The notes under the pieces were generated by a model. It worked only from the letters and a program-made list of their open reading frames with translations, was not told the origin of the DNA and ran no database searches. DNA of 64,000 nt from a bacterium (GTDB taxonomy: Bacteria; Patescibacteriota; Minisyncoccia; Moranbacterales; GWC2-37-73). Position numbers and translations under genes: made by a program. Below are positions 5,089-54,390 of this stretch, piece after piece (within the stretch, counting starts at the first letter, position 1; each line of letters opens with the position of its first letter). The DNA lies in the NCBI GenBank assembly GCA_037140955.1, contig JBAXDL010000003.1:27348-91347 (forward strand). Direction: 5' to 3'.

Positions 5089-5213
5089 ATGAATTTAAAT
5101 TTCTAATTCTGAATTTTTAATTTTGAATAAAATCTTAATGGCACAATGTTTCAAAATTTAAAACATTGAAAATTCATTCAAAATTCAAAATTGGAAATTA
5201 AAAATTAATAGCC

Positions 5214-9037: not shown

Positions 9038-10186
9038 CTATTCCCCCTTCAAGATAACAGAAATTTCCCTCGCACATTGGTCCCAATCAAATCTTTTCAC
9101 ATTTTTAAGACCTTTTTTGATAAGGTCTTTTTTCTTTTCTTTGTTAGAAATTATTTCAAAAATATTCTCAGCAATTTCATTTGGATTACTTGGATCAACC
9201 AAAGCAGCTGAACAGGTATCAAATTGCATCTTTGCTTTTTCAAGACCGGATTCCGGTTCAAGCCCGGAATGACAAGATGTGATCTCGGAAATCGAAGAAT
9301 TGTTTGAAGCAACAACGCAGCATCCAACACTTTGCGCTTCCAAAATTGGAATTCCAAAGCCTTCATATTGTGTTGGAAAAACAAAAACATCTGCATTTTT
9401 CAAAAGTTCCCATTTTTCATCATCACCCACGAATCCAAATTCTTGAATTTCCTCATTCCATTTGGAATTTGATATTTGGAATTTGATATTTACATAATTA
9501 TGTCCTGGTTTTCCAGCAAGTATAAGATGATGCGGAATATTATATTTTTCCTTCAATATGTCAAAAGCTTTGATGATATTTGCAATATTTTTCCTTTCCT
9601 CAATTCTACCTAAAAATAAAAGAAATTTCTGATTTCTAATTTTGGATTTTATTTGATATTTGTCATTTGGATTTTGGATTTTATTGCCGTATCCCTCATA
9701 AATAACCTTTATTTTTTCATTTGCAATTCCATATAGTTCAATCAAATCCTTCTTGGTGTTTTCAGAAACTGAAATTATCACATTTGCCCAAATGCAGGAT
9801 TTTTTGATAGTAAGACGCATATAAAAGCGCTCAAACCAAGAATATGCTCGTGGAAGAAATTCATATTCCAGGCCATGCACTGTCACGATAGTATTTCTTG
9901 GATGAATCATTGGCACAGTATGTGCAGGAACAAACAATTTCTCCACTGGATGCAAAAACATTTCCAATGACAATCCAAATTGTGTCCAAAATATTGGAAA
10001 TCTTATTTCCGTGATTTTCCAATTTTCTGGCAACTTGAAATCTATTTTTTGATTTTTACGAATATACAAAATTACTTGCTCATTCTGCAAGTAATTTGTA
10101 AGATTTTCTATAACCTGATATGAATATTCTTCAATACCAGTTCTTTGTTTCAAAAATGCCCGAGAAGCATCGATGCCTATTTTCAT
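9038..10186 (-). CDS. Glycosyltransferase family 4 (group 1). The C-terminal region contains a GC-rich palindromic-repeat fragment in frame.
   Basis: QYEGFGIPILEAQSVGCCVVAS (E-x7-E region). The peptide SCHSGLEPESG is encoded by the GC-rich 9258..9282 segment shared with the element inside elp3. Confidence 0.7.
   Translation of the reverse strand: MKIGIDASRAFLKQRTGIEEYSYQVIENLTNYLQNEQVILYIRKNQKIDFKLPENWKITEIRFPIFWTQFGLSLEMFLHPVEKLFVPAHTVPMIHPRNTIVTVHGLEYEFLPRAYSWFERFYMRLTIKKSCIWANVIISVSENTKKDLIELYGIANEKIKVIYEGYGNKIQNPNDKYQIKSKIRNQKFLLFLGRIEERKNIANIIKAFDILKEKYNIPHHLILAGKPGHNYVNIKFQISNSKWNEEIQEFGFVGDDEKWELLKNADVFVFPTQYEGFGIPILEAQSVGCCVVASNNSSISEITSCHSGLEPESGLEKAKMQFDTCSAALVDPSNPNEIAENIFEIISNKEKKKDLIKKGLKNVKRFDWDQCAREISVILKGE
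9258..9282 (-). repeat. Partial copy of the GC-rich palindromic element, in frame within the GT4 coding sequence (CHSG-peptide family). It is 20 bp identical to 46908-46927.
   Basis: The minus-strand sequence tgtcattccgggcttgaacc matches tgtcattccgggcttgaccc at 46908 apart from a one-base insertion (19 of 20 identical). It lies in a local GC spike. Confidence 0.55.
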
Positions 10187-11366: not shown

Positions 11367-11419
11367 AATCGTAAAAATTTCAAATTATAAATTTTAAATT
11401 CTAAATCAATTTCCAATTC

Positions 11420-11746
11420 CTAATTTTTAAATTCCGAAACCCTGAAATTACCATTTTCCAATTTTCTTTTTTCTCTGCTCATTATTTTTTCATGTTTCTT
11501 CCAGAAAGCTTTTTCAAATTCTTCCACACTCACACCAATACTGATCATGTTTCCCAAAATCAAATTCATCAAATCAATATTCTCCTCAATAAAATCCTCT
11601 TTAGATTTTCCTTTTGTCACTGCTTGTGCCAACTCACCTAGTTCTTCTGTCATCAAATTCAAGCGAAAAGTCATCTCCTCATTGTTTGTCCCTTTCATTT
11701 CATTCTTTGCGTGAAATTCAGCAATGGCATTATAGAATTTTTTCAT
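11420..11746 (-). CDS. MazG-like all-alpha NTP pyrophosphohydrolase domain protein. The start is probably ATG at 11746; the track's TTG start at 11791 would overlap repeat copy B.
   Basis: EELGELAQAV motif with an EE..E.....E/D pattern. About 108 aa. Confidence 0.45.
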   Translation of the reverse strand: MKKFYNAIAEFHAKNEMKGTNNEEMTFRLNLMTEELGELAQAVTKGKSKEDFIEENIDLMNLILGNMISIGVSVEEFEKAFWKKHEKIMSREKRKLENGNFRVSEFKN

Positions 11747-16295: not shown

Positions 16296-17009
16296 TTATA
16301 TCCATTTTTTTGCTTCCAAGCCAAGTCTTGCCGCTTCACGTTGAGCTTCTTGCTTTGAATTTCCTTCGCCCTCTGCCACCAATTCATCAGCAAGATAAAC
16401 GCCAACCACAAAGTGTTTGTCGTGATCAGGTCCCCATTCCTTCATCACGCGATACGATGGAGTGACTTTGCTATTTTCCTGCGCCTTCTCTTGAAAATAA
16501 CTTTTTGGATCAAGGTATAATTTTTTTTCAATAATCTCGGTCAATCTGGTTGCTACATTTTTCAAGACAAATTTTTTGGTCACCTCATATCCTTGATCAA
16601 GATAAATAGCGCCAATAATGGCTTCCAATGCGTTTGCCAGTAAGTATTGACGAGCTCTCCCTTTGTCTTTTGCTTCTCCGCGACTCATGAGCAAAAATCC
16701 TTCAACTCCAATGCTTTGCGAAACACTAGCAAGCATTTCACCATTAACAAGCGCACTTCTCCAACTAGTAAGTTCGCCTTCTGGATTTTTATAATTAGCG
16801 TACAAATATTCAGTTATAATCAATTCTAAAACAGCATCACCCAAAAATTCCAAACGCTCATTGTGATCAAGCGCATAATCTCTGTTTTCATTTAAGTAAC
16901 TTCGATGCGTCACTGCCTGTCTCAAAATTTCAATATTTCCAAATTCAACTCCAATTTTTTTAGCTAAAGATTCGATCATAGATACAAAAACCCAAAAACC
17001 AAATAACAA
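16296..17009 (-). CDS. rnc: Ribonuclease III.
   Basis: ERLEFLGDAVLE signature, C-terminal dsRBD, 237 aa. Confidence 0.9.
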   Translation of the reverse strand: MLFGFWVFVSMIESLAKKIGVEFGNIEILRQAVTHRSYLNENRDYALDHNERLEFLGDAVLELIITEYLYANYKNPEGELTSWRSALVNGEMLASVSQSIGVEGFLLMSRGEAKDKGRARQYLLANALEAIIGAIYLDQGYEVTKKFVLKNVATRLTEIIEKKLYLDPKSYFQEKAQENSKVTPSYRVMKEWGPDHDKHFVVGVYLADELVAEGEGNSKQEAQREAARLGLEAKKWI

Positions 17010-17127
17010 AAACCAAATAAAATCAAAAGTTCAAAATCTTAATTTTTAGATTTTGATATTTAGTCATTTATTTGAAATTTGACATTTGGATTTTAGATTT
17101 GAAATAACTCAATTATATTCAGAAAGC

Positions 17128-17616
17128 TTATTTTTCTTCTTTTGCTTTTACTTCTTGCTCTTCTTTGTGTTTTTTTGTACTATCATCTTTCATGGGCTCA
17201 CCCATTTCACGATAAATGGTTCCAAGCACGCCATTAACAAAGCGAGCACTACTGTCACCTCCAAATGTTTTGGCAAGTTCTATTGACTCATTGATTGCAA
17301 CCTTTGGTGGGACTTCCCCATAATTTCCATGCATCAATTCATAAATTCCAAGACGAAGAATGTTTCGATCAATCAAGGTCACTTGATCCAATGGCCATTC
17401 AGGAGCACACTTTTCAATCAAAGCATCAATTGTTGCTCTTTTCTCCAATGTTCCCTTGGCCAAATCTTTCACAAATTCAAAATCTTCAATGCCCGGGGCA
17501 AATTCAAGCACATTGCGTCTGACAATATCATCAATCAACTCATCATGCATGCCTTGAAAATCCCACTCAAAAAGAGCCTGCATTGCAACGCTGCGCTGAA
17601 GATGTCTATTTGCCAT
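17128..17616 (-). CDS. nusB: Transcription antitermination factor NusB, with a Lys/Glu-rich C-terminal tail.
   Basis: [21 protein letters not shown]-terminus. All-helical, 162 aa. Confidence 0.8.
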
Positions 17617-17658: not shown

Positions 17659-17856
17659 TTATTTCTTTTTTGCTACTTTTTTGATAGTGTTTACAACTTC
17701 ATTTCCTTTGTAAAAACCACAATGAGTGCAAACTCTGTGTGAAAGTTTTTCCTTGCCGCATTTTGAACATGTTTGAGTTTTGATTGGCTCAATTGCGAAA
17801 CGATCTCTTTTTGCATCTCGTCTTTGTTTGGTGTGCCTCTGTTTTGGTACTGACAT
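17659..17856 (-). CDS. rpmF: 50S ribosomal protein L32.
   Basis: MSVPKQRHTKQRRDAKR... then C-x2-C ... C-x2-C zinc ribbon. 65 aa. Confidence 0.8.
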   Translation of the reverse strand: MSVPKQRHTKQRRDAKRDRFAIEPIKTQTCSKCGKEKLSHRVCTHCGFYKGNEVVNTIKKVAKKK

Positions 17857-17869
17857 AGTTTAGTCAAAA

Positions 17870-17898
17870 GTTCTTAAAGTTTGTAAAGTTCGTAAAGC
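17870..17898 (-). promoter_or_regulatory. Periodic 9-mer leader repeat (gttcttaaa gtttgtaaa gttcgtaaa gc) 14-42 nt upstream of the rpmF start. No SD.
   Basis: Three tandem GTYNGTAAA units. The same motif occurs upstream of nusG at 41254-41290. Confidence 0.4.
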
Positions 17899-18005
17899 TA
17901 CTAACAAATGCCTTATATTGCGCTCTTTACAGACCTAAGAACCACTACAAATAAATATTAAAAATACAACGTCATAATAGCATGGCATTTGTGATTTGGC
18001 AATAG

Positions 18006-30888: not shown

Positions 30889-31842
30889 ATGAAAAAACAA
30901 GCTCAAAAAATTGTCGTGGTGATGGGTCCAACAGCCTCCGGAAAATCAGGAATGGCTATTTTGATTGCCAAAAAATACAATGGTGAAATAATCTCAGCTG
31001 ACAGTCGACAAGTCTATATGGGCTTAGATATCGGAAGTGGAAAAGTTTCAAGACAACAGACAAAATACAACATGCAAAATACAAAAAATATAGAATACAT
31101 TTCCGAAGGAATTGTGCATCATCTTATTGATGTTGCAAATCCAATGGATGATTTCAATATTTCACACTTTAAAACATCAGCAAGTATTGCCATTGAAAAA
31201 ATAATAGCAAAAGGAAAGCTTCCAATCATCTGCGGTGGAACGTCTTTTTGGATTGATTCAATAACAAAAAACACCTTTATCCCGGAAGTTGCTCCTGATC
31301 ATGCCCTGCGAGCAACACTGGAAAATAATAGCATTGAAGAATTATTTTCAATGTTGCAAGAACTTGACCAGGAAAGAGCCCAAAATATTGATCAAAAAAA
31401 CAAAGTCAGATTGATTCGTGCAATTGAAATTTGCAAAGCACTTGGAAAAGTTCCGAAAAACAATGAAAACTCTTATCAATCAAAAGCCAATTCGAAATAC
31501 AATTTTTTACAAATTGGAATTTTGATAGACAGAACGCAATTAAATGAAAAAATAAAAACCAGATTAGAAGAAAGATTTGCAGATGAAATGATTCAAGAAG
31601 TAGAAGGACTACTAAAAAACAACATCTCTCCAGCATGGCTAGAAAGAATTGGTCTTGAATATCGCTGGATTAACAGGTATCTTCAAGGCAATGTCCAACT
31701 AGATGAAATGCAAAAATTGCTCTATTTTGACATCATTCACTACGCCAAAAGGCAGATGACATGGCTCAAGAGAAACACTGATATTATCTGGATAAAAGAC
31801 TATGGTGAAGCCGAAAAAGAAATGGAGAAATTCCTAAAATAA
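30889..31842 (+). CDS. miaA: tRNA dimethylallyltransferase.
   Basis: P-loop VVMGPTASGKS. 317 aa. Confidence 0.9.
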   Translation: MKKQAQKIVVVMGPTASGKSGMAILIAKKYNGEIISADSRQVYMGLDIGSGKVSRQQTKYNMQNTKNIEYISEGIVHHLIDVANPMDDFNISHFKTSASIAIEKIIAKGKLPIICGGTSFWIDSITKNTFIPEVAPDHALRATLENNSIEELFSMLQELDQERAQNIDQKNKVRLIRAIEICKALGKVPKNNENSYQSKANSKYNFLQIGILIDRTQLNEKIKTRLEERFADEMIQEVEGLLKNNISPAWLERIGLEYRWINRYLQGNVQLDEMQKLLYFDIIHYAKRQMTWLKRNTDIIWIKDYGEAEKEMEKFLK

Positions 31843-34312: not shown

Positions 34313-34496
34313 AATTTTATAATTATCGTTTTTAGTAAGAATTATTTTAATACAAAATTTCCTTAATTTATTTCATTGCTCAAATTTCCAAATCTCAATT
34401 TCCAATTTCCAACAAAATTCCAATGTATCAATTTTCAAAATTAAATTCATTTAAGAGCTTATTTGGCATTTGCAATTTGGATTTTGAAATTACCTA

Positions 34497-38390: not shown

Positions 38391-39197
38391 TTAATTTTCC
38401 TTTCGAATGAGGACGAGCACATCACCTTCCTTCACAACAATATTGTCTTCCGGTGAGATATAGTTTTCCGCCGGAATGACAATATTTTCAAATGAAACAT
38501 AAAAGTTTCTTTTGCCAATATTGTGAAATGTTGGCATCTTGATTTTTCGTTCTGGTTGCGGGTTCATGTTGAACATGATTTTCCGTTTCAAGAAGCCTCG
38601 ATTGTCAGCAACGACAGCGCCAACAATCTTTTTGTCGCCAGTGTCGGAAAAAAAGTGAGTGTTGTGAATGAAGCTAGCCAACTCACGCTCGGTTCCAGGC
38701 GACATCGCAACCAACTCATAGCTGAATTTTGTGTCATCAGTTGAAAGTCCAAAGATATTCCTTGGCACATTTCCGTTTTTTACCAAAAGACCAAGATCTT
38801 CTGGTTCAATTTCCATAAAACTTCCAATGTAGCTATTTACAAGCCATGTTGGAATTGTAGAAGAAATGTCCATCAATGGAGCGCAAGCTGCCAAATCAGC
38901 ACCAGTTACCTTGAAACGATACCAGCCAGCAGACACCAATTCTCCAGGATTTTTCTTCTCCCAGGCACCAATCACTCCAAAGAATGATTGGGATGTTTTC
39001 AATTGGCTCGTCTCTAACGTGCCACAATTCACTGAAGTCACAGTGAATTGATATGGCATATACCTCTGAAATTCGCCATTGATCAAAATTGATCTCCTGA
39101 TGGTCACCAATTCCTCACTGCCACCACCAGCCATCACTGGAAACGCCGACAGGGCAAAAATCGCTAATACAAGCCCAAAAATCATCATTTTTCTCAT
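38391..39197 (-). CDS. Hypothetical secreted protein (signal peptide). The start is at 39197 with SD AAGGAG; the track's 39257 start is rejected.
   Basis: MRKMMIFGLVLAIFALSAFPVMAGGG signal peptide. SD aaggag 7-12 nt upstream. Confidence 0.45.
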   Translation of the reverse strand: MRKMMIFGLVLAIFALSAFPVMAGGGSEELVTIRRSILINGEFQRYMPYQFTVTSVNCGTLETSQLKTSQSFFGVIGAWEKKNPGELVSAGWYRFKVTGADLAACAPLMDISSTIPTWLVNSYIGSFMEIEPEDLGLLVKNGNVPRNIFGLSTDDTKFSYELVAMSPGTERELASFIHNTHFFSDTGDKKIVGAVVADNRGFLKRKIMFNMNPQPERKIKMPTFHNIGKRNFYVSFENIVIPAENYISPEDNIVVKEGDVLVLIRKEN

Positions 39198-39361
39198 TTT
39201 CCTTCTCCTTTTGTTAAGACTACTGGAATGCCGGACATGTCCGGTTGTGTCAATCAAGACAACGTATTATTATACGCTTTTTTGTCAAAAAAGTCAAGAA
39301 AAAAACATCCCCGAAAAGATGTCTTTTTGCTTGATAGGCTTTATAGACTTTCAGCTTTTGA

Positions 39362-40702: not shown

Positions 40703-41248
40703 TTATATCTTAGTAATCTGCAAGAAATCAAGCTCTACAGGGGTTTCGCGTCCAAAGATTGTCACCAAAACTTTCACCTTTCCCTTCTCTTCGTCAAATT
40801 CTTGAACCTTTCCATCAAAGTCTTTAAATGGTCCTTCGTTGATTTTCACCGCATCGCCATTTTTAAGGTCAATCTTGTATTTCGGTTCAGACACTCCCAT
40901 GCGCTTTTTCAACATTTCAATTTCTTTTGGATCAACAGGGGTTGGAGTTGTACCAAGACCAATAAATCCGGTCACATTTGGCGTGTTTCGCACCACATAC
41001 CATGAAGCATCAGTCACAACCATATTAACAAGAACATAACCAGGATAAATGCGCTCTTCAATTACTGTGCGCTTGCCATTTTTGATCTTAATCTTGTTCT
41101 CCTTTGGAACCATTACATCAAAGATAAGGTCTTGCATGTCCATGGATTCAATACGCTGCTTCAAATTTCTGGTAACATTGTCTTCATAACCAGAATATGT
41201 ATGAATCACATACCAAGCTCGCCCATGATGTTGTGTCTGTTTTGCCAT
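40703..41248 (-). CDS. nusG: Transcription termination/antitermination factor NusG.
   Basis: AWYVIHTYSGYEDNV NGN domain, C-terminal KOW. 181 aa. Confidence 0.9.
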   Translation of the reverse strand: MAKQTQHHGRAWYVIHTYSGYEDNVTRNLKQRIESMDMQDLIFDVMVPKENKIKIKNGKRTVIEERIYPGYVLVNMVVTDASWYVVRNTPNVTGFIGLGTTPTPVDPKEIEMLKKRMGVSEPKYKIDLKNGDAVKINEGPFKDFDGKVQEFDEEKGKVKVLVTIFGRETPVELDFLQITKI

Positions 41249-41253
41249 AATTT

Positions 41254-41290
41254 AGTCTTAAAGTCCGTAAAGTCCGTAAAGTCCGTAAAG
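41254..41290 (-). promoter_or_regulatory. Tandem 9-mer leader repeat (gtcttaaa, then 3 x gtccgtaaa, then gc) 6-42 nt upstream of the nusG start codon. No SD.
   Basis: Three perfect gtccgtaaa units plus one degenerate unit. The same periodic motif lies upstream of rpmF. Confidence 0.45.
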
Positions 41291-41352
41291 CTTATTTGAA
41301 TTTTGCTTTATAGACTCTTAACCTTATAGGCTTTTATCTTGAAATTTATTTC

Positions 41353-41538
41353 TTACTTGATAATATATGTCTTTAGGATATAACCAAAAATCCAGTCTAA
41401 TCCGCCCAAAAATCCTGCCACAATAACGCTTACAGCCACCACTAGCAGCGTGTAATTTATTGTTTGTTTTTTTGTTGGCCAATTCACTTTCAGCATTTCT
41501 GCCTTAGCTTCAAGGAAAAATTGTATAGCCTTGTTCAT
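41353..41538 (-). CDS. secE: Preprotein translocase subunit SecE.
   Basis: 61 aa with a single C-terminal TM (LLVVAVSVIVAGFLGG) in the conserved position upstream of nusG. Confidence 0.8.
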   Translation of the reverse strand: MNKAIQFFLEAKAEMLKVNWPTKKQTINYTLLVVAVSVIVAGFLGGLDWIFGYILKTYIIK

Positions 41539-41865: not shown

Positions 41866-41941
41866 TTGGATTTGAGCCTGCACCTCCTCAATGCAAGAGA
41901 TTGAGAACATGTGAGCAATCTCCGCTCTGATGATTTACCGG
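41866..41941 (-). other. Degenerate tRNA-Ala-like duplicate (pseudo-tRNA). It shares the 5' acceptor and anticodon region with tRNA-Ala but has no intact D-arm or 3' acceptor strand.
   Basis: The reverse complement tgggccggta...ttgcattgaggaggtgcaggctcaaatcc matches tRNA-Ala tgggccggta...ttgcactgaggaggtagcgggttcaagtcc. The middle portion is scrambled and the 3' end is missing. Confidence 0.3.
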
Positions 41942-42159
41942 CCCATAAATGAGCTACAGAAATAATTATAACAAAAAGAAAAAATTTGTCCATAGCTAAA
42001 TAACAATTAAACAAAAATTGCTATATTTGACATTAATTTTAGATATATTATGCTTGAAATACATATTGATATAGTTCATTACTAAAGAAGCTAAGGGAGG
42101 TGAATCTGGAAATATTTTTGCAAAGCTGAAGCACACATCAAAAAACCGGAGGCGCAAAA

Positions 42160-45572: not shown

Positions 45573-47258
45573 ATGGAAAAATACTATGACAATTATATCA
45601 AATCAGCCATCAAACAGCTTCCCGACTTTCTGGATGATTTTTCAAAACTCAAAAAAAAGCTGTCCAAGCAATACAGTATTCCACTTCCAACTAACGCAAA
45701 CTTGCGTGACAGATACAATCAACTTGTAGAAAAAAGAATCATCAAAAAGAATGAAGCTTTTGAAGACATTCTTTGCACGCGTGGAATTCGCACGCAATCA
45801 GGAGTCGCAGTGGTGGCCGTCCTCACCAAGCCCTATCCATGTCCTGGAAAATGCATCTATTGCCCAACAGAAAAAGACATGCCCAAGAGTTATCTCTCAA
45901 ATGAACCGGCAGTGATGCGCGCTATTGACTCTCAATTTGACCCCTATCGTCAAATGCAAAATCGCTTGCGCTCACTGGAGCTAAATGGGCACCGAACAGA
46001 CAAGATTGAGCTTATTGTGATGGGTGGAACTTTTTCATTCTTACCCAAAGCATATCAAAAAAAATTCATAATCAGATGCTTTGCTGGGGCCAATGAATTT
46101 AAAAACAAAAGACAAAATTCAAAAGACAAAATTCAAAAGAGCCCACAAGAGCAATTGCAATTTGAGCAAAAAAGAAATGAAACCGCAAAGCAAAGAATCA
46201 TCGGGCTCACACTTGAAACAAGACCGGACTATATTAACGAAAAAGAAATTTTAAACTTCAGAGAACTTGGCTGCACGCGAGTTGAACTTGGGGTGCAGAG
46301 TATTTATGATGATGTGCTCGAATTCAACAAGCGTGGCCATCTTGTGAGCGAAACAATCAGAGCCACTAAGCTGCTCAAGGATGCAGGCTTTAAGATAAAC
46401 TATCATATGATGCCAGGTCTTCCAGGCTCGAGCATTGTTCGTGATTTTGAAATGTTCAAGTCTCTTTTTGATGGACCAAATTTTCAACCAGACATGCTCA
46501 AGATATATCCAACAGTTGTGCTCAAAGATAGTGAGTTGTATGATATTTGGAAAAAGAAAAAATACATACCGCTTTCAAATGAAGCTTTTGAAAAATTGGT
46601 AGTAAGGATAAAGAATGAAGCTATTGTGCCATATGTTCGCATTGCAAGACTCATTCGCGATGTGCCGACACCATCAATCATGGCTGGACCAATGGTTTCA
46701 AACTTGAGACAAATCATCATTCCGAAGTCAAATTGTCCCTGCATTCGTTGTCGCGAAGTTGGTGCAACCTACAAAATAAAAGAAAAAATTGTTCTGGATA
46801 GAATTGACTACAAAGCTTCAGATGGTCAAGAAATTTTCTTGCAATATGTTTCGCCTGACAAAAAAAAATTATTCGCCCTTTTGCGCCTTCGAATTCCAAA
46901 CTCCTCGTGTCATTCCGGGCTTGACCCAAAATCCAGCAAGTCTCACCAAAAAACAAACGACCTGGATTCACGCCTCCGCGGAAATGACAAGCTTTATGAT
47001 CTTTTGCCAATCCTGCAAAGTGCCGCCCTTATCAGAGAGGTTCATACCTATGGAAAATTAACCAAGATAGACACGCAAGACAAAACATCTCCGCAACATA
47101 TTGGACTTGGAAAAAAACTTCTTCTTGAAGCTGAAAAAATTGCCAAAGAAGAATTTGGTATGTCAAAAATAACAGTAATTTCTGGTGTTGGTGTGCGTGG
47201 ATATTATAGAAAAAATGGATACAGGCTTAAAAATACCTATCTAACAAAAAAGATATAA
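45573..47258 (+). CDS. elp3: Elp3-family radical SAM / GNAT protein (tRNA U34 carboxymethyluridine synthase homolog). Carries an in-frame palindromic-element insertion.
   Basis: VAVVAVLTKPYPCPGKCIYCP radical-SAM cluster region characteristic of Elp3, and a C-terminal GNAT (HIGLGKKLLLEAEKIAK). 561 aa. Confidence 0.75.
   Translation: MEKYYDNYIKSAIKQLPDFLDDFSKLKKKLSKQYSIPLPTNANLRDRYNQLVEKRIIKKNEAFEDILCTRGIRTQSGVAVVAVLTKPYPCPGKCIYCPTEKDMPKSYLSNEPAVMRAIDSQFDPYRQMQNRLRSLELNGHRTDKIELIVMGGTFSFLPKAYQKKFIIRCFAGANEFKNKRQNSKDKIQKSPQEQLQFEQKRNETAKQRIIGLTLETRPDYINEKEILNFRELGCTRVELGVQSIYDDVLEFNKRGHLVSETIRATKLLKDAGFKINYHMMPGLPGSSIVRDFEMFKSLFDGPNFQPDMLKIYPTVVLKDSELYDIWKKKKYIPLSNEAFEKLVVRIKNEAIVPYVRIARLIRDVPTPSIMAGPMVSNLRQIIIPKSNCPCIRCREVGATYKIKEKIVLDRIDYKASDGQEIFLQYVSPDKKKLFALLRLRIPNSSCHSGLDPKSSKSHQKTNDLDSRLRGNDKLYDLLPILQSAALIREVHTYGKLTKIDTQDKTSPQHIGLGKKLLLEAEKIAKEEFGMSKITVISGVGVRGYYRKNGYRLKNTYLTKKI
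46908..46989 (+). repeat. GC-rich palindromic element of about 82 bp inserted in frame in elp3 (encodes SCHSGLDPKSSKSHQKTNDLDSRLRGNDK). Terminal inverted repeat gtcattccggg / cccgcggaaatgac.
   Basis: Local GC spike with inverted termini. In other frames it reads VIPGLTQNPA / HASAEMTS, typical of a widespread palindromic-repeat peptide family. A 20-bp partial copy (one-base insertion difference) lies at 9258-9282. Confidence 0.6.
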
Positions 47259-47261
47259 ATT

Positions 47262-48302
47262 TTATTCTCCAGCCAGCTGACCACAGGCTGCCTTGATCTC
47301 ATCGCCAAGACTTTTTCTGATAGTTGCATGAACTTGATATTTCTCAAGTTCATTTTTAAATATTTGCGTTCTGGTTTTAGAAGAAGGTTTTAGGTTTTCA
47401 CTAGTAGCATTATATCGAATAAGATTCATATGCAAAAGATGATTATTCCCAATTGAACAAATAAAATCTGAAAGTTGTTTTGCATCAAGAGCTGTGTCGT
47501 TTATGCCATCCAGCATGATATATTCCAAAAAAACCTTACGCTTAGTGATGACAAAATAATTCTTGAGGGCATTTTTTAATGCCTCCATGTTATCCAATTT
47601 ATTTACTGGCATATACAGGTCGCGTTTTTTGTCATTAGCAAAATGCAAAGAAATTGCCAAGTTCACCTGTGGAAACTCTTGAGACATTTTTTCAATTCCT
47701 TTTGCAATTCCAGAAGTGGAAACTGAAATGCTGCGAGATCCAAAACCAAATAGCTTTTCATCAATCAAAACAGCAATACTATCTGAAACATTTTTCCAAT
47801 TATTAAAAGGCTCCCCCATTCCCATATAAACAATAGTTGAAACTTGCTCACTTTTTGCTTTTAGATTTTTGCTTTTAGATTTTAAATACTGACGCCAAAA
47901 TAAAACTTGATCAGTAATTTCTTCACAACTCAAATCACGCTTAAACCCAATTTTTCCTGTCGCGCAAAACCTGCAACCCATCGCACATCCAACCTGACAT
48001 GAAATGCAAGCTGACCATGTGTCGGGCTTTGGCGAAATCAAAACCGTTTCAATCAAATTTCCATCATTCAATTTCAAAAGCGCTTTAATTGATTGTCCAT
48101 CCTTGGCAACCAAAACCTTTTCAACATTAAAAGAAAGTAATTGCAGTTCTTGTTGCATTTTTTCTCGCAAATCCTTGGACAAAGTTGAAATTTCAGCAAA
48201 AGAAGAAACACCATCAGCAAAGATAGCTTTTGTTATTTGACCAAAACGAAATTTTGGCAAATTATTTTCCTGCAAGAAATTTTGAAGTTTTATTATATCC
48301 AT
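47262..48302 (-). CDS. rlmN: 23S rRNA (adenine2503-C2)-methyltransferase, radical SAM (RlmN/Cfr family).
   Basis: CQVGCAMGCRFCATG cluster, C-terminal conserved Cys in AACGQLAG. 346 aa. Confidence 0.85.
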   Translation of the reverse strand: MDIIKLQNFLQENNLPKFRFGQITKAIFADGVSSFAEISTLSKDLREKMQQELQLLSFNVEKVLVAKDGQSIKALLKLNDGNLIETVLISPKPDTWSACISCQVGCAMGCRFCATGKIGFKRDLSCEEITDQVLFWRQYLKSKSKNLKAKSEQVSTIVYMGMGEPFNNWKNVSDSIAVLIDEKLFGFGSRSISVSTSGIAKGIEKMSQEFPQVNLAISLHFANDKKRDLYMPVNKLDNMEALKNALKNYFVITKRKVFLEYIMLDGINDTALDAKQLSDFICSIGNNHLLHMNLIRYNATSENLKPSSKTRTQIFKNELEKYQVHATIRKSLGDEIKAACGQLAGE

Positions 48303-51749: not shown

Positions 51750-54155
51750 TTATTCAACAACAATATTTATAATCTTTCCTGGAACAAAAATAATTTTTTT
51801 GATTTCTTTTCCATCCGTGAAAACTCTCACCTTCTCATTTTCAAGTGCGGTCTCTTTCACCTCATCCTCAAGCACATCCGCAGCCACCATCAATCGCTCG
51901 CGCACTTTTCCATTAACTTGCACCACCATCTCAATCTCATTATCCCTTGAAAGCTTTTCATCGAATTGTGGCCAGCTCTGCAAGAAAATTGATTTTTCAT
52001 TTCCAAGCCCACTCCATAATTCCTCTGCAACATGTGGAGCAAAAGGAGCAAGAACGATGAGCAACGACTGAAAATCATCTTTTGCAATCTTGCTTTCCTT
52101 TTCCATCGCATTTACCAAAATCATCATTTGCGAAATGGCAGTATTAAATCTGAAATTTTCAATATCATCAGAAACTTTTTTGATAGTTTTATGCAACAAA
52201 GAAACAATTTTCTTGTCACTTGAAATATCAGCACTTACTAATTCTTTTACTTTCCAAATCTTATCCAAAAATCTTCGTACGCCACTTACGCCTGTTGTAC
52301 TCCAAGAAACACTTTGCGTAAATGGGCCCATAAACATTTCATATAATCTCATAGCATCAGCGCCATATTCACCAATAATGTCATCTGGATTAACAACATT
52401 ATTCCAGCGCTTGCTCATTTTGCGTCCATCCTCAGCCATAATAAGTCCCACATGTAAAAGTTTTTTGAAGGGCTCAATAGTTGAAACAACTCCAATATCA
52501 TACAAAAATTTATGCCAAAATCTTGCATACAAAAGATGTCTTGTGGCGTGTTCTGCACCACCAACATATAGATCAACAGGCATCCACTGCTTTTCCAAAT
52601 CTTTATCAATTATTACCTTATCATTTTTTGGATCAATATAGCGCAAATAATACCAAGATGAACCTCCCCATTGTGGCATCGTGTTAGTTTCTCTTTTCCC
52701 TAGTCTTCCACACTTTGGACAAGTAGTATTGACCCAATCAGAAATGCTTGCCAATGGTGATTCTCCGGTTCCGGTTGGTTCATAGTTCTCTACCTCAGGA
52801 AGTGTCACTGGCAAATCCTTTTCTGGCACACCAACAGCACCACAATTCTCACAATGAATAATCGGGATTGGCTCACCCCAATATCGCTGGCGAGAATATA
52901 CCCAATCGCGCATTTTGTAATTTACCTTTCTTTTGCCAATTTTTTCTTTTTCTAAATAATCTGCAATTTTTTCTCTAGCCTCAGACGAAGATAAATTTGA
53001 ATATCCATCAGAATTAATAAGAATACCATCATCCGTAAATGCATTTTCAAAAATTGATCCACCTGAAACAACTTCTTTAATCTCAAGATTATATTTTTTT
53101 GCAAACTCAAAATCCCTTTCATCATGGGCTGGCACTGCCATCACAGCCCCTGTTCCATATCCACCCAAAACATAATCGGCCACAAAAAGTGGCACTGATT
53201 TTCCAGTAAAAGGATTCACAACCAAAATACCTTCTAGCCTCACGCCAGTTTTTTCTTTTTGCAATTCGGTTCTTTCTAGATTTGTTTTTTTGTTTGCATC
53301 CTCAATATATTTTTTAACCTCATCAAGATTAGAAATATTTTCCTTCAATTTTTCAATAATTTCATGTTCTGGGGCAACCACGGCATAGGTAATTCCAAAA
53401 GCAGTGTCGATTCTAGTTGTATAAACCTCAATTTTTTCGTCACTACTTTCAATTTGCATTGCAAATTGAACACCTTCACTTCTACCAATCCAGTTTTTTT
53501 GTTGCTCAACAATCATATCTTCCCATTCAAGCTGGGGACTATCAAGATCATACAAAAGCCTGTCTGCATAGTCGGTCATTTTCAAAACCCATTGTCGCAT
53601 TTGTTTTTGCTCAACAACACTTCCACATCTCTCGCATTTTCCATCCTCCAAATCCTCATTAGAAAGCCCTGTCTTACAACTTGGACACCAATTGATTGGC
53701 GCATTTGATTCATAGGCTAAACCCTTCTCAAAAAGCTTCAAGAAAATCCACTGCGTCCACTTACAATAAGCAGGGTCAGTGGTATTAATTTCCCTATCCC
53801 AGTCATAAGTAAAACCAAACATTTCAAGTTGTCTCTTGTAGTTAGCTATACTCCTGGCAGTAAAAACATTTGGATTACTCTTATTTTTGATTGCATAATT
53901 TTCAGCCGGAAGACCAAAAGCATCCCAACCCATTGGATGAAGAACGCTAAATCCATTAAGCATTTTGAAGCGCGCTGTCACATCAGTTGCAATATATCCT
54001 TTCGGATGACCGACATGCAACCCAACTCCTGATGGATATGGAAACATGTCTAAAACATAAAACTTCTTATCACGCGAATAATCCTTATAAGTCCCATTAT
54101 CCTCCCAATATTTTTGCCATTTTTTTTCAATATTTTTTGGTTCGTATTTTTCCAT
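51750..54155 (-). CDS. leuS: Leucyl-tRNA synthetase.
   Basis: HVGHPKGY (HIGH), KMSKRWNN (KMSKS), CP1 editing domain. 801 aa. Confidence 0.95.
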   Translation of the reverse strand: MEKYEPKNIEKKWQKYWEDNGTYKDYSRDKKFYVLDMFPYPSGVGLHVGHPKGYIATDVTARFKMLNGFSVLHPMGWDAFGLPAENYAIKNKSNPNVFTARSIANYKRQLEMFGFTYDWDREINTTDPAYCKWTQWIFLKLFEKGLAYESNAPINWCPSCKTGLSNEDLEDGKCERCGSVVEQKQMRQWVLKMTDYADRLLYDLDSPQLEWEDMIVEQQKNWIGRSEGVQFAMQIESSDEKIEVYTTRIDTAFGITYAVVAPEHEIIEKLKENISNLDEVKKYIEDANKKTNLERTELQKEKTGVRLEGILVVNPFTGKSVPLFVADYVLGGYGTGAVMAVPAHDERDFEFAKKYNLEIKEVVSGGSIFENAFTDDGILINSDGYSNLSSSEAREKIADYLEKEKIGKRKVNYKMRDWVYSRQRYWGEPIPIIHCENCGAVGVPEKDLPVTLPEVENYEPTGTGESPLASISDWVNTTCPKCGRLGKRETNTMPQWGGSSWYYLRYIDPKNDKVIIDKDLEKQWMPVDLYVGGAEHATRHLLYARFWHKFLYDIGVVSTIEPFKKLLHVGLIMAEDGRKMSKRWNNVVNPDDIIGEYGADAMRLYEMFMGPFTQSVSWSTTGVSGVRRFLDKIWKVKELVSADISSDKKIVSLLHKTIKKVSDDIENFRFNTAISQMMILVNAMEKESKIAKDDFQSLLIVLAPFAPHVAEELWSGLGNEKSIFLQSWPQFDEKLSRDNEIEMVVQVNGKVRERLMVAADVLEDEVKETALENEKVRVFTDGKEIKKIIFVPGKIINIVVE

Positions 54156-54390
54156 ATAGCTACAAGATTACAAATTTATATAAACACACAATAATTTATG
54201 TGAGAATATGTTTTTATTTTTTCACTAGAAATAAGTCACTTTGGTGTTATGTCAAAAGTTGCAATTATTTCTCCGTGACAAAAATAAAAACATATTCTCA
54301 CAACTATGCCATACCAACAAATCCATAAAAAATAAAAACAACCATCTTTAATTGTTTTTATGATATCAGAATTTTTATATAAAATCAATA

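Follow-up and report, generated by a model that had tools for sequence, protein, structure and literature searches.

Repeat runs upstream of nusG and rpmF

The stretch of DNA analyzed here, a 64-kb window of contig JBAXDL010000003.1, belongs to a Moranbacterium (Patescibacteria, also known as candidate phyla radiation, CPR), and its NusG homologues place it in Candidatus Moranbacteria. Coordinates are given as positions in this window, and the nusG and rpmF elements are read on the minus strand. Both genes are directly preceded by a run of 9-mers. The nusG leader reads GC TTTACGGAC TTTACGGAC TTTACGGAC TTTAAGAC TAAATT ATG (array 41291-41255, ATG 41248-41246) and the rpmF leader reads GC TTTACGAAC TTTACAAAC TTTAAGAAC TTTTGAC TAAACT ATG (17898-17857, ATG 17856-17854). 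Both runs form the 3' arm of an imperfect palindrome, with reverse-oriented units (AAAGTCTAT and similar) located upstream. A half element of the same type is found after rplA, so that this ACTTTAYRR-type family is present at three places in the 64 kb. The inverted partner upstream of each array and the rplA half element had been overlooked in the initial annotation of this DNA.

That annotation had described a periodic 9-mer element in front of both genes, and the periodicity is real. According to Tandem Repeats Finder (TRF), the nusG array (41259-41290) has a period of 9 with 3.6 copies and 100% matches, and the rpmF array has a period of 9 with 3.4 copies and 86% matches. The phased pattern ACTTTN4ACTTTN4ACTTT (at most one mismatch) occurs four times in the window, always at the nusG and rpmF sites, against 0.06 matches expected from shuffles. 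A single 9-mer with two mismatches is found at chance level in the window (105 matches vs 115 expected). It is thus the phasing of the array that carries the signal, not the single word. The consensus first given for the unit, GTYCGTAAA on the plus strand, agrees with all three units at nusG; of the three at rpmF (GTTCTTAAA, GTTTGTAAA and GTTCGTAAA) it agrees with only one. The described likeness of the leaders in phase and in distance to the start was confirmed: the runs align over ~44 nt, the GC lies 43 nt (nusG) or 42 nt (rpmF) from the ATG, and both leaders end in GACTAAAYT-ATG, which has no other exact match in the window. The conclusion that the two runs are one kind of element is thereby supported, as is their location on the coding strand within a transcribed leader or spacer. 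The features of both loci are collected in Table 1.

Table 1. Features of the nusG, rpmF and rplA repeat loci in the window
Feature	Position	Strand	Basis
secE, cistron upstream of nusG	41353..41538	-	Translation; Pfam SecE
nusG 5' (left) arm, reverse-oriented units AAAGCCTAT AAGGTTAAG AGTCTATAAAGC	41305..41334	-	Sequence, fold; homologous arm in L131
nusG element loop between arms, 13 nt, AAAATTCAAATAA	41292..41304	-	Fold
nusG 3' (right) arm, GC(TTTACGGAC)x3 TTTAAGAC	41255..41291	-	TRF; pairs as 3' arm in the minimum free energy fold
TAAATT directly 5' of nusG ATG	41249..41254	-	Unpaired in fold
nusG, downstream cistron	40703..41248	-	Pfam NusG+KOW
Half element of the same family, AAAGTCTAT AAAGCCTAT CAAGC	39329..39351	-	TRF, sequence comparison
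Putative rpmF promoter TTGCCA-17-(TG)TATTAT	17974..18002	-	Promoter scan; motif recurs in relatives
rpmF 5' arm, GGTTCTTAGGTCTGTAAAG, near reverse complement of facing CTTTACAAACTTTAAGAACT	17925..17943	-	Fold
rpmF 3' arm, GC TTTACGAAC TTTACAAAC TTTAAGAAC TTTTGAC	17863..17898	-	TRF, fold; core identical in L010 and L139
TAAACT directly 5' of rpmF ATG	17857..17862	-	Sequence
rpmF (L32)	17659..17856	-	Pfam L32p
nusB, downstream of rpmF	17128..17616	-	Pfam
rnc (RNase III), downstream of nusB	16296..17009	-	Pfam

The left arm of the nusG element starts 18 nt after the secE stop codon. In the RNA fold of the secE-nusG spacer a stem of ~26 bp is formed (-21.3 kcal/mol, z -3.2, 0/200 shuffles as stable), and the last 11 nt of the leader stay unpaired (41259-41249, i.e. 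AAGAC at 41259-41255 followed by TAAATT). The rpmF leader folds at -26.1 kcal/mol (z -2.1). A canonical terminator follows the half element, which itself starts 10 nt past the stop codon of rplA.

For rpmF, a motif of the form cTTGCCAaa ... TGnTAnAnT is found at the same position in the leaders of many relatives. With the putative promoter at 18002-17974, a good match, the rpmF palindrome therefore lies inside a 5' untranslated region (UTR) of ~110 nt. In the promoter scan no gene-strand promoter was found between secE and nusG. The nusG element is therefore probably intercistronic, lying between the cistrons of one transcript. The array itself was also considered as a sigma-70 promoter and rejected, as hexamers within the units would be spaced by 14 or 23 nt and no gene-strand promoter was returned by the scan in this spacer. 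A reading of the 9-mers as an N-terminal extension of NusG could be discarded as well, given the in-frame TAA two codons before the ATG.

It had further been pointed out that nusG and rpmF lack a Shine-Dalgarno (SD) sequence. This is true, but it carries no information: an SD core (GGAG, GAGG or AGGA at -21 to -4) is present in only 3 of the 49 ATG-start genes of the window, and its absence is therefore the genome-level norm and uninformative for single genes. The 21 nt upstream of the starts in the window consist of 50% A and 32% T.

Orthologous leaders in relatives

Comparison loci from related and array-bearing genomes are labeled here with L numbers. The loci L001-L008 encode an identical NusG protein, yet their nusG leaders are unrelated to the element in the window. 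In L009, which has an identical SecE protein and nearly identical DNA, the secE-nusG spacer is only 12 nt long and contains no element; the spacer of L216 also measures 12 nt. A homologous spacer of 101 nt is present in L131 (NusG 98% identical). It has both arms with diverged units (GCTTGGTGG ACTTTACGG ACTTGATGG ACTTTGTAAC), and its hairpin reaches a z of -4.4. In L217 and L218 (NusG 94-95% identical) the same spacer is occupied by unrelated 7-mer tandem palindromes (CATATAA.../GCTACAT... and GTTCCAC...). The nusG-rplK spacers of L216 and L217 contain 7-mer tandem palindromes too, and one 7-mer unit occupies two spacers of L217.

For rpmF, NusB was used to obtain the leaders of 67 relatives. 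Among these, an ACTTTAYRR array is found in L010, L139, L141-L144 and L148. Other units take its place in L136 and L140 (GACTTTT 7-mers), L153 (AGAAATT) and L155 (AATCCGTTA), and no array at all is seen in L137, L138 and L196. The 67 leaders thus display four different repeat units, or none. Hairpin z values range from -3.4 to -4.5 in four of these sequences and are weaker in others. Within the subclade that bears the 9-mers, the ACTTTA cores form invariant columns and the left arm is far less conserved. As the sequences had been chosen for carrying arrays, this is only a hint that the forward units themselves are under constraint in this subclade.

Overall, position and architecture recur across the relatives at rpmF, while the unit sequence does not. 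Conservation with the orthologous genes, which was taken as a test for an autoregulatory leader of ribosomal protein (r-protein) or Nus type, is seen neither at nusG nor at rpmF.

A different leader is found in many other Moranbacteria. In L005-L007, secE and nusG are separated by 164 nt ending in ...gagacgggacgctcatttttgtagctgctcgtacctcgcagacaaaaATG, a conserved and G+C-richer sequence that may be a cis-regulatory RNA. Gene callers mistake this leader for coding sequence and add a false N-terminal extension (MRDAHxCSxSLRS...) to NusG, whose models then reach 191-198 aa. These longer models arise from this other, structured leader and not from 9-mers. The NusG protein itself is 100% identical between L001-L008 and the window, despite differing neighbors, intergenic DNA and synonymous sites. 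With more than 120 clusters at 84% identity or higher, its conservation is unusually strong.

ACTTTAYRR arrays in other genomes

When one genome per species was scanned for CTTTACNNACTTTANNNACTTT, at least 120 loci were returned; the same scan of viral contigs gave at least 119. The counts below refer to the matches listed and form no basis for frequencies per genome or per phylum. Open reading frames (ORFs) were called mechanically and crudely (first ATG, at least 80-90 codons, table 11), and gene names outside the window come from a reading of N-terminal sequences and flanking ORFs. By their sequence labels, ~65 of the 120 genome loci belong to the FCB group (Fibrobacterota-Chlorobiota-Bacteroidota; carriers include Bacteroidales, Ignavibacteria, Paludibacter and Rikenellaceae), 28 to Patescibacteria, 9 are unclassified and 18 come from other taxa. 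Patescibacteria and the FCB group thus account for ~78%, and clear chance matches are mostly found among the 18 others. The strict unit ACTTTA-Y-R-R is present in 86 of the 120 genome loci vs 13 of the 119 viral loci. The commonest units are ACTTTACAA, ACTTTATAA, ACTTTATGA and ACTTTACGA. The arrays contain 3-17 units each, and some of them are located at contig ends.

The arrays lie mostly in intergenic DNA, with 10 of 108 inside ORFs. Their placement is also polar. Of 67 arrays, 55 have their 3' end nearer to a gene border than their 5' end (p = 1e-7; median 22 nt vs 129 nt), and the rule also holds for arrays without a partner arm (29 of 36). For 34 of the 67 arrays, the nearer border is the start codon of a same-sense gene; for the other 33 it is a stop codon, belonging to a gene on the opposite strand. 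Among the partnerless arrays, 16 of 36 stand at an opposite-strand stop codon. Of 88 arrays, 23 have reverse AAAGT cores (at least two within 100 nt) on their upstream side and none has them on the downstream side, meaning that a convergent arrangement of the arms was never seen among these 88. Read in the sense of the genes, the order is stop codon, (AAAGTYYRT)n, loop, (ACTTTAYRR)n and start codon, where the reverse units lie just past the stop codon and the forward units 10-25 nt before the start codon. Within 40 nt of an ATG, the forward orientation outnumbers the reverse by 25 to 7 (~3.5 to 1).

The genes downstream of forward arrays are mixed and encode S12, L13, GroEL, AckA, GreA, Kbl, KdsA, FtsW, membrane proteins and a response regulator. 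A restriction to regulon genes was not found, as ackA, kbl, kdsA, ftsW and membrane-protein genes are preceded as well. Full elements occur in Patescibacterial operon spacers, namely groES-groEL (L069), upstream of rpsL (L017) and rplQ-rplM (L054), and also in L036, L065 and L088. The two arms of L036 differ in period (8-mers vs 9-mers). In L071, L082 and L105 the arrays are located upstream of predicted promoters, hence outside the UTR.

The initial annotation had suggested that the runs form one control element shared by ribosomal and transcription-factor operons. This is unsupported, since nusG of the nearest relatives lacks the element and the neighboring genes are mixed. It had also named a random distribution without enrichment at r-protein leaders as evidence to the contrary. 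There is indeed no r-protein specificity, but the arrays are not randomly placed: they are intergenic and anchored at gene borders.

In two Ignavibacteriaceae loci (L089 and L026), ACTTTACAA arrays grade into the neighboring units CAACTTT, CAACTATTA and CTCTACACA, the units there apparently mutating and then expanding anew at the same site. Several viral IMG/VR loci (L223, L235, L241, L242, L252, L255, L269, L275, L277 and L285) contain the palindrome (AAAGTARGT)n, GTGTGAACAC, (ACTTTACTT)3. The same palindrome is found in L287, L288, L290, L292, L307, L325 and L334-L336; its architecture is alike, its unit different.

Tandem-repeat background of the Moranbacteria

A background set of 536 kb of Moranbacterial DNA that had not been selected by pattern was searched with TRF for short-period arrays of at least 2.8 copies. 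It contains 131 such arrays, 112 of them outside ORFs. By far the most frequent period is 7 (90 of 131), and period 9 is mostly represented by the ACTTTAYRR family. Start codons follow within 40 nt in 41 cases, and 25 arrays are located just past a stop codon. The window itself fits this picture: 7-mer tandem palindromes fill the spacers 5089-5213, 17010-17127 (nusB-rnc), 11367-11419 and 34313-34496. Their folds were scored by z against mononucleotide shuffles, and the spacer 5089-5213 folds at -28.6 kcal/mol (z -5). The nusG and rpmF elements are period-9 members of this general class of tandem palindromes. Depletion of G was considered as a general rule of start-proximal arrays and rejected, given that 7-mer families near start codons contain G.

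Further arrays with a period of 7 or 14 nt are present in the window at 9460-9682, 11367-11429, 16985-17105, 31051-31086, 46101-46140 and 47852-47884. Units of these 7/14-nt arrays include AATTTTG/CAAAATT, CCAAAT/ATTTGG and GGAAATT, and several are arranged as inverted arms across whole spacers.

A family of intergenic tandem-repeat palindromes

The ACTTTAYRR palindromes apparently represent a widespread and undescribed family in Patescibacteria and the FCB group. The family is intergenic, polar in its placement and quick in turnover, and it is tied to no functional class of genes. Searches of the open-access literature with the exact repeat strings and with concepts returned no description of it. 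The covariance models of Rfam 15 gave chance-level matches only (E > 4) on the nusG and rpmF leaders, and on 16 array-bearing loci and on the window only tRNAs were matched.

With moderate confidence, the 9-mer run is regarded as the start-proximal arm of a tandem-repeat palindrome, i.e. a foldback-type intergenic repeat with generic effects, and not as a specific operator. The element consists of a reverse-unit arm (AAAGTYYRT)n, a short loop and a forward arm (ACTTTAYRR)n. The arrays would grow and become homogenized by replication slippage. The repeats have the features of slippage products, as the units are arranged head to tail, with three perfect copies at nusG vs diverged ones in L131 and 3-17 units elsewhere; the perfect nusG copies, set against the diverged L131 units, point to recent expansion or conversion. 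The family may also spread or be copied within a genome, as suggested by the three related copies in 64 kb and by the two spacers of L217. Because the element lies in transcribed spacers, a hairpin is possible in the mRNA. The transcript would then fold into an A/U-rich hairpin of 26-30 bp that ends 11-20 nt before the AUG, leaving the start region single-stranded and rich in A. If expression is affected at all, the effect is probably generic and not specific: a long A/U-rich stem in front of an SD-less start would therefore influence expression in a generic manner at most, be it via mRNA processing or stability or via insulation of the start, and the element would be tolerated and dispensable.

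Several observations weigh against this interpretation. One 9-bp unit with one polarity recurs in two distant phyla, for which slippage alone is insufficient; common descent together with horizontal spread, or a conserved recognition factor, is needed. For this reason a sequence-specific reading, as a translation module or a protein-binding array, is kept at low probability. Within one subclade, the core of the rpmF array is more conserved than its flanks and left arm. No transposase was identified at the elements, in an analysis that included no search aimed at transposases. No target-site duplication is visible when the window is compared with L009, where the whole spacer is replaced, and the array ends decay gradually (ACTTT, then ACTNN) without sharp termini. 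Insertion of a miniature inverted-repeat transposable element (MITE) was rejected on these grounds, namely the missing target-site duplication and the lack of defined terminal inverted repeats. A generic role of the RNA hairpin has no specific support either, the sense strand being no more stable than the antisense strand. Finally, the ORF calls are crude, and the genome and viral array counts rest on the matches listed.

Alternative explanations

An RNA hairpin under selection, acting as RNase III processing site or as stabilizer against exonucleases, could uncouple secE from nusG and autoregulate rpmF-nusB-rnc. Significant folds at nusG, rpmF, L131 and in relatives are consistent with it, as is the presence of the element in the operon spacers groES-groEL, rplQ-rplM and secE-nusG. 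The rpmF operon contains rnc, with a second tandem palindrome in the nusB-rnc spacer, and a comparison by hand of the arms of the window and L144 shows one apparent compensatory change (A-U to C-G). Precedents are the autoregulation of the Escherichia coli rnc leader and the cleavage of Correia elements by RNase III. Selection at the mRNA level would favor the sense fold, because G-U pairs become A-C mismatches in the other strand. However, the sense RNA is more stable than the antisense in only 13 of 20 cases (p = 0.29) and in 3 of 8 independent 9-mer palindromes, without any sense-strand bias in stability or G-U pairs, and selection of RNA as judged by this comparison was rejected. In the palindrome of L217 it is even the antisense that pairs far better (-37 vs -13 kcal/mol sense). 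The unequal periods in L036 (8 vs 9), the many arrays without a partner arm, the weak z in several orthologous leaders and the variable presence among close relatives make a selected hairpin unlikely. Somewhat less credence still is given to a sequence-specific translation-initiation element, in which (ACUUUAYRR)n 5' of the AUG recruits the 30S subunit (e.g. via S1) and the inverted arm acts as a mask. Both Patescibacteria and the FCB group rely little on SD sequences, and the unit is common to these two SD-poor phyla (SD core in 3/49 genes of the window). The forward arm stands 10-25 nt before starts and is favored there by 25 vs 7, the Patescibacterial arrays precede rpsL, rplM, groEL, greA, nusG and rpmF, and the ACTTTA cores are invariant columns in the aligned rpmF leaders. 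This core presumably resembles the epsilon enhancer of T7 gene 10 (UUAACUUUA). On the other hand, around half of the arrays (including 16 of the 36 partnerless ones) lie not at a start codon but next to the stop codon of a gene on the other strand, orthologous leaders use quite different units or none, and nusG of the nearest relatives works without an array. The arrays of L071, L082 and L105 would not even be part of the mRNA. That (ACUUUAYRR)n might be a conserved ribosome-recruitment module of SD-less phyla, with the (AAAGUYYRU)n arm as cis mask or processing signal, is rated lower again.

The invariance of only a 5-6 bp core, the divergent and never convergent arms, the missing strand bias (as predicted for a feature at the DNA level) and the position of some arrays upstream of promoters would suit an operator array. 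In this case a DNA-binding protein of the LytTR type, of the ribbon-helix-helix type or associated with the nucleoid would bind the divergent ACTTT/AAAGT cores. Reverse units of the form AAAGTTYRT fit the published 9-bp LytTR consensus [TA][AC][CA]GTTN[AG][TG]. The window units AAAGTCCGT, however, break this consensus at GTT. LytTR sites come as two 9-bp sites with a spacer of 12-13 bp (spacing ~21 bp), whereas the units here are contiguous with a period of 9. Other units and periods at the same sites in close relatives would call for a different protein per lineage, the targets belong to the housekeeping operons of CPR genomes, which are poor in regulators, and no candidate binding protein was identified. 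An operator array is accordingly considered very unlikely. Least probable of all are tandem boxA-like sites through which NusB/NusE would autoregulate the genes of Nus factors. Both loci of the window precede such genes (nusG and the rpmF-nusB operon), and the CUUUA core is shared with E. coli boxA (GCUCUUUAACAA). Baniulyte and co-workers are said to have described, in 2017, boxA elements upstream of nus genes. Compared by hand, the best repeat unit agrees with E. coli boxA, the only boxA compared, at just ~8 of 12 positions; none of the 215 loci searched for a 16S gene contains one. In other genomes these arrays stand in front of unrelated genes, and the nusG leaders of the closest relatives lack the element. 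This broad gene context and these nusG leaders argue against autoregulation via boxA and Nus factors.

Comparison with known repeat systems

Proteobacterial repetitive extragenic palindromes (REP), in the form of BIME (bacterial interspersed mosaic elements) and REPIN (REP doublets forming hairpins), are similar in being short, imperfect intergenic palindromes that form genome-specific families, are located within operons or past stop codons, yield hairpins in the mRNA and vary in presence between strains. The ACTTTAYRR elements are likewise intergenic and imperfectly palindromic, have several copies and vary among relatives. REP sequences, however, are single G+C-rich palindromes without tandem periodicity and are linked to REP-associated tyrosine transposases (RAYT). 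The arms here are A+T-rich and built from units of 7-9 bp, the ACTTTAYRR unit spans phyla, and no transposase was identified, none having been searched for.

Eukaryotic foldback (FB) elements share the long inverted arms of short tandem repeats and the variable copy number, but they are kilobase-scale and demonstrably mobile. The elements described here measure 60-150 bp, and their mobility would follow from presence/absence and multiple copies. The Correia elements of Neisseria and similar MITEs are also co-transcribed intergenic inverted repeats that form hairpins, which in their case can be cut by RNase III and alter expression. Their sequence, however, is fixed (100-155 bp), and they have defined terminal inverted repeats and duplicate a TA target; no such feature was found here.

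The 7-bp leader repeats of hmw1A and hmw2A in Haemophilus influenzae are comparable as short tandem units between promoter and start that evolve by slippage. These are single hypervariable arrays at contingency genes, in contrast to the ~3-4 units with a palindromic partner at housekeeping operons seen here. A/U-rich enhancers and standby sites (T7 epsilon, S1-dependent leaders) resemble the runs in their ACUUUA core, the unstructured and G-poor leader and the SD-less AUG, but they are single-copy and have neither periodicity nor an inverted partner. The 9-mer runs may have a generic role as standby site or unstructured leader.

Other features of the window

A structured element of ~100 nt (TTTTTGGCACGCTTTTGRAT...ATYCAAAAGCTCAAGAG...GGCCAAA) is present in at least six intergenic copies, around 10310, 11839, 34940, 36141 (plus strand), 40193 (rplK-rplA spacer) and 51699. 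Its 13-mer has 11 matches vs 2.3 expected, and no Rfam match was obtained. It could be a MITE or a novel structured RNA. At 54199-54302 a perfect 23-nt inverted repeat (TGTGAGAATATGTTTTTATTTTT and its complement) has arms that are 58 nt apart; this spacer precedes a gene of 801 aa (51750-54155) and folds at -59.7 kcal/mol (z -5.9).

Transfer RNA genes for Ala and Ile typically form pairs in rRNA spacers. In the window such a pair stands alone with its own strong promoter match (41992-41965). A third tRNA-like sequence with the same 5' flank (tttatgggccggta...) is located upstream of it (41870-41950, minus strand) and received no call from ARAGORN or Rfam. At the place after rplA where rplJ/rplL would be expected, an ORF of 288 codons is found (38391-39257, minus strand). 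It has a TTG start, no Pfam match and a near-consensus promoter (TTGACT-17-TATAAT) in front, and it may not be a protein-coding gene.

Significance

Matching repeats upstream of two seemingly related operons need not signal a regulon, and the absence of an SD sequence in a Moranbacterium says nothing about an individual gene. The ACTTTAYRR units form divergent tandem arrays that are anchored at gene borders in many genomes of Patescibacteria and Bacteroidota/Ignavibacteriota, and no description of them was found in the open-access literature searched or in Rfam. If they are selfish or slippage-driven repeats, they would be a marker of genome dynamics in streamlined CPR genomes, and they would be relevant in practice as arrays that break assemblies (several are found at contig ends) and mislead gene callers. 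If instead the unit is recognized by a conserved factor, it would bear on start-site selection in SD-less bacteria. As a ribosome-recruitment module, it would constitute a new class of translation-initiation element common to several phyla.

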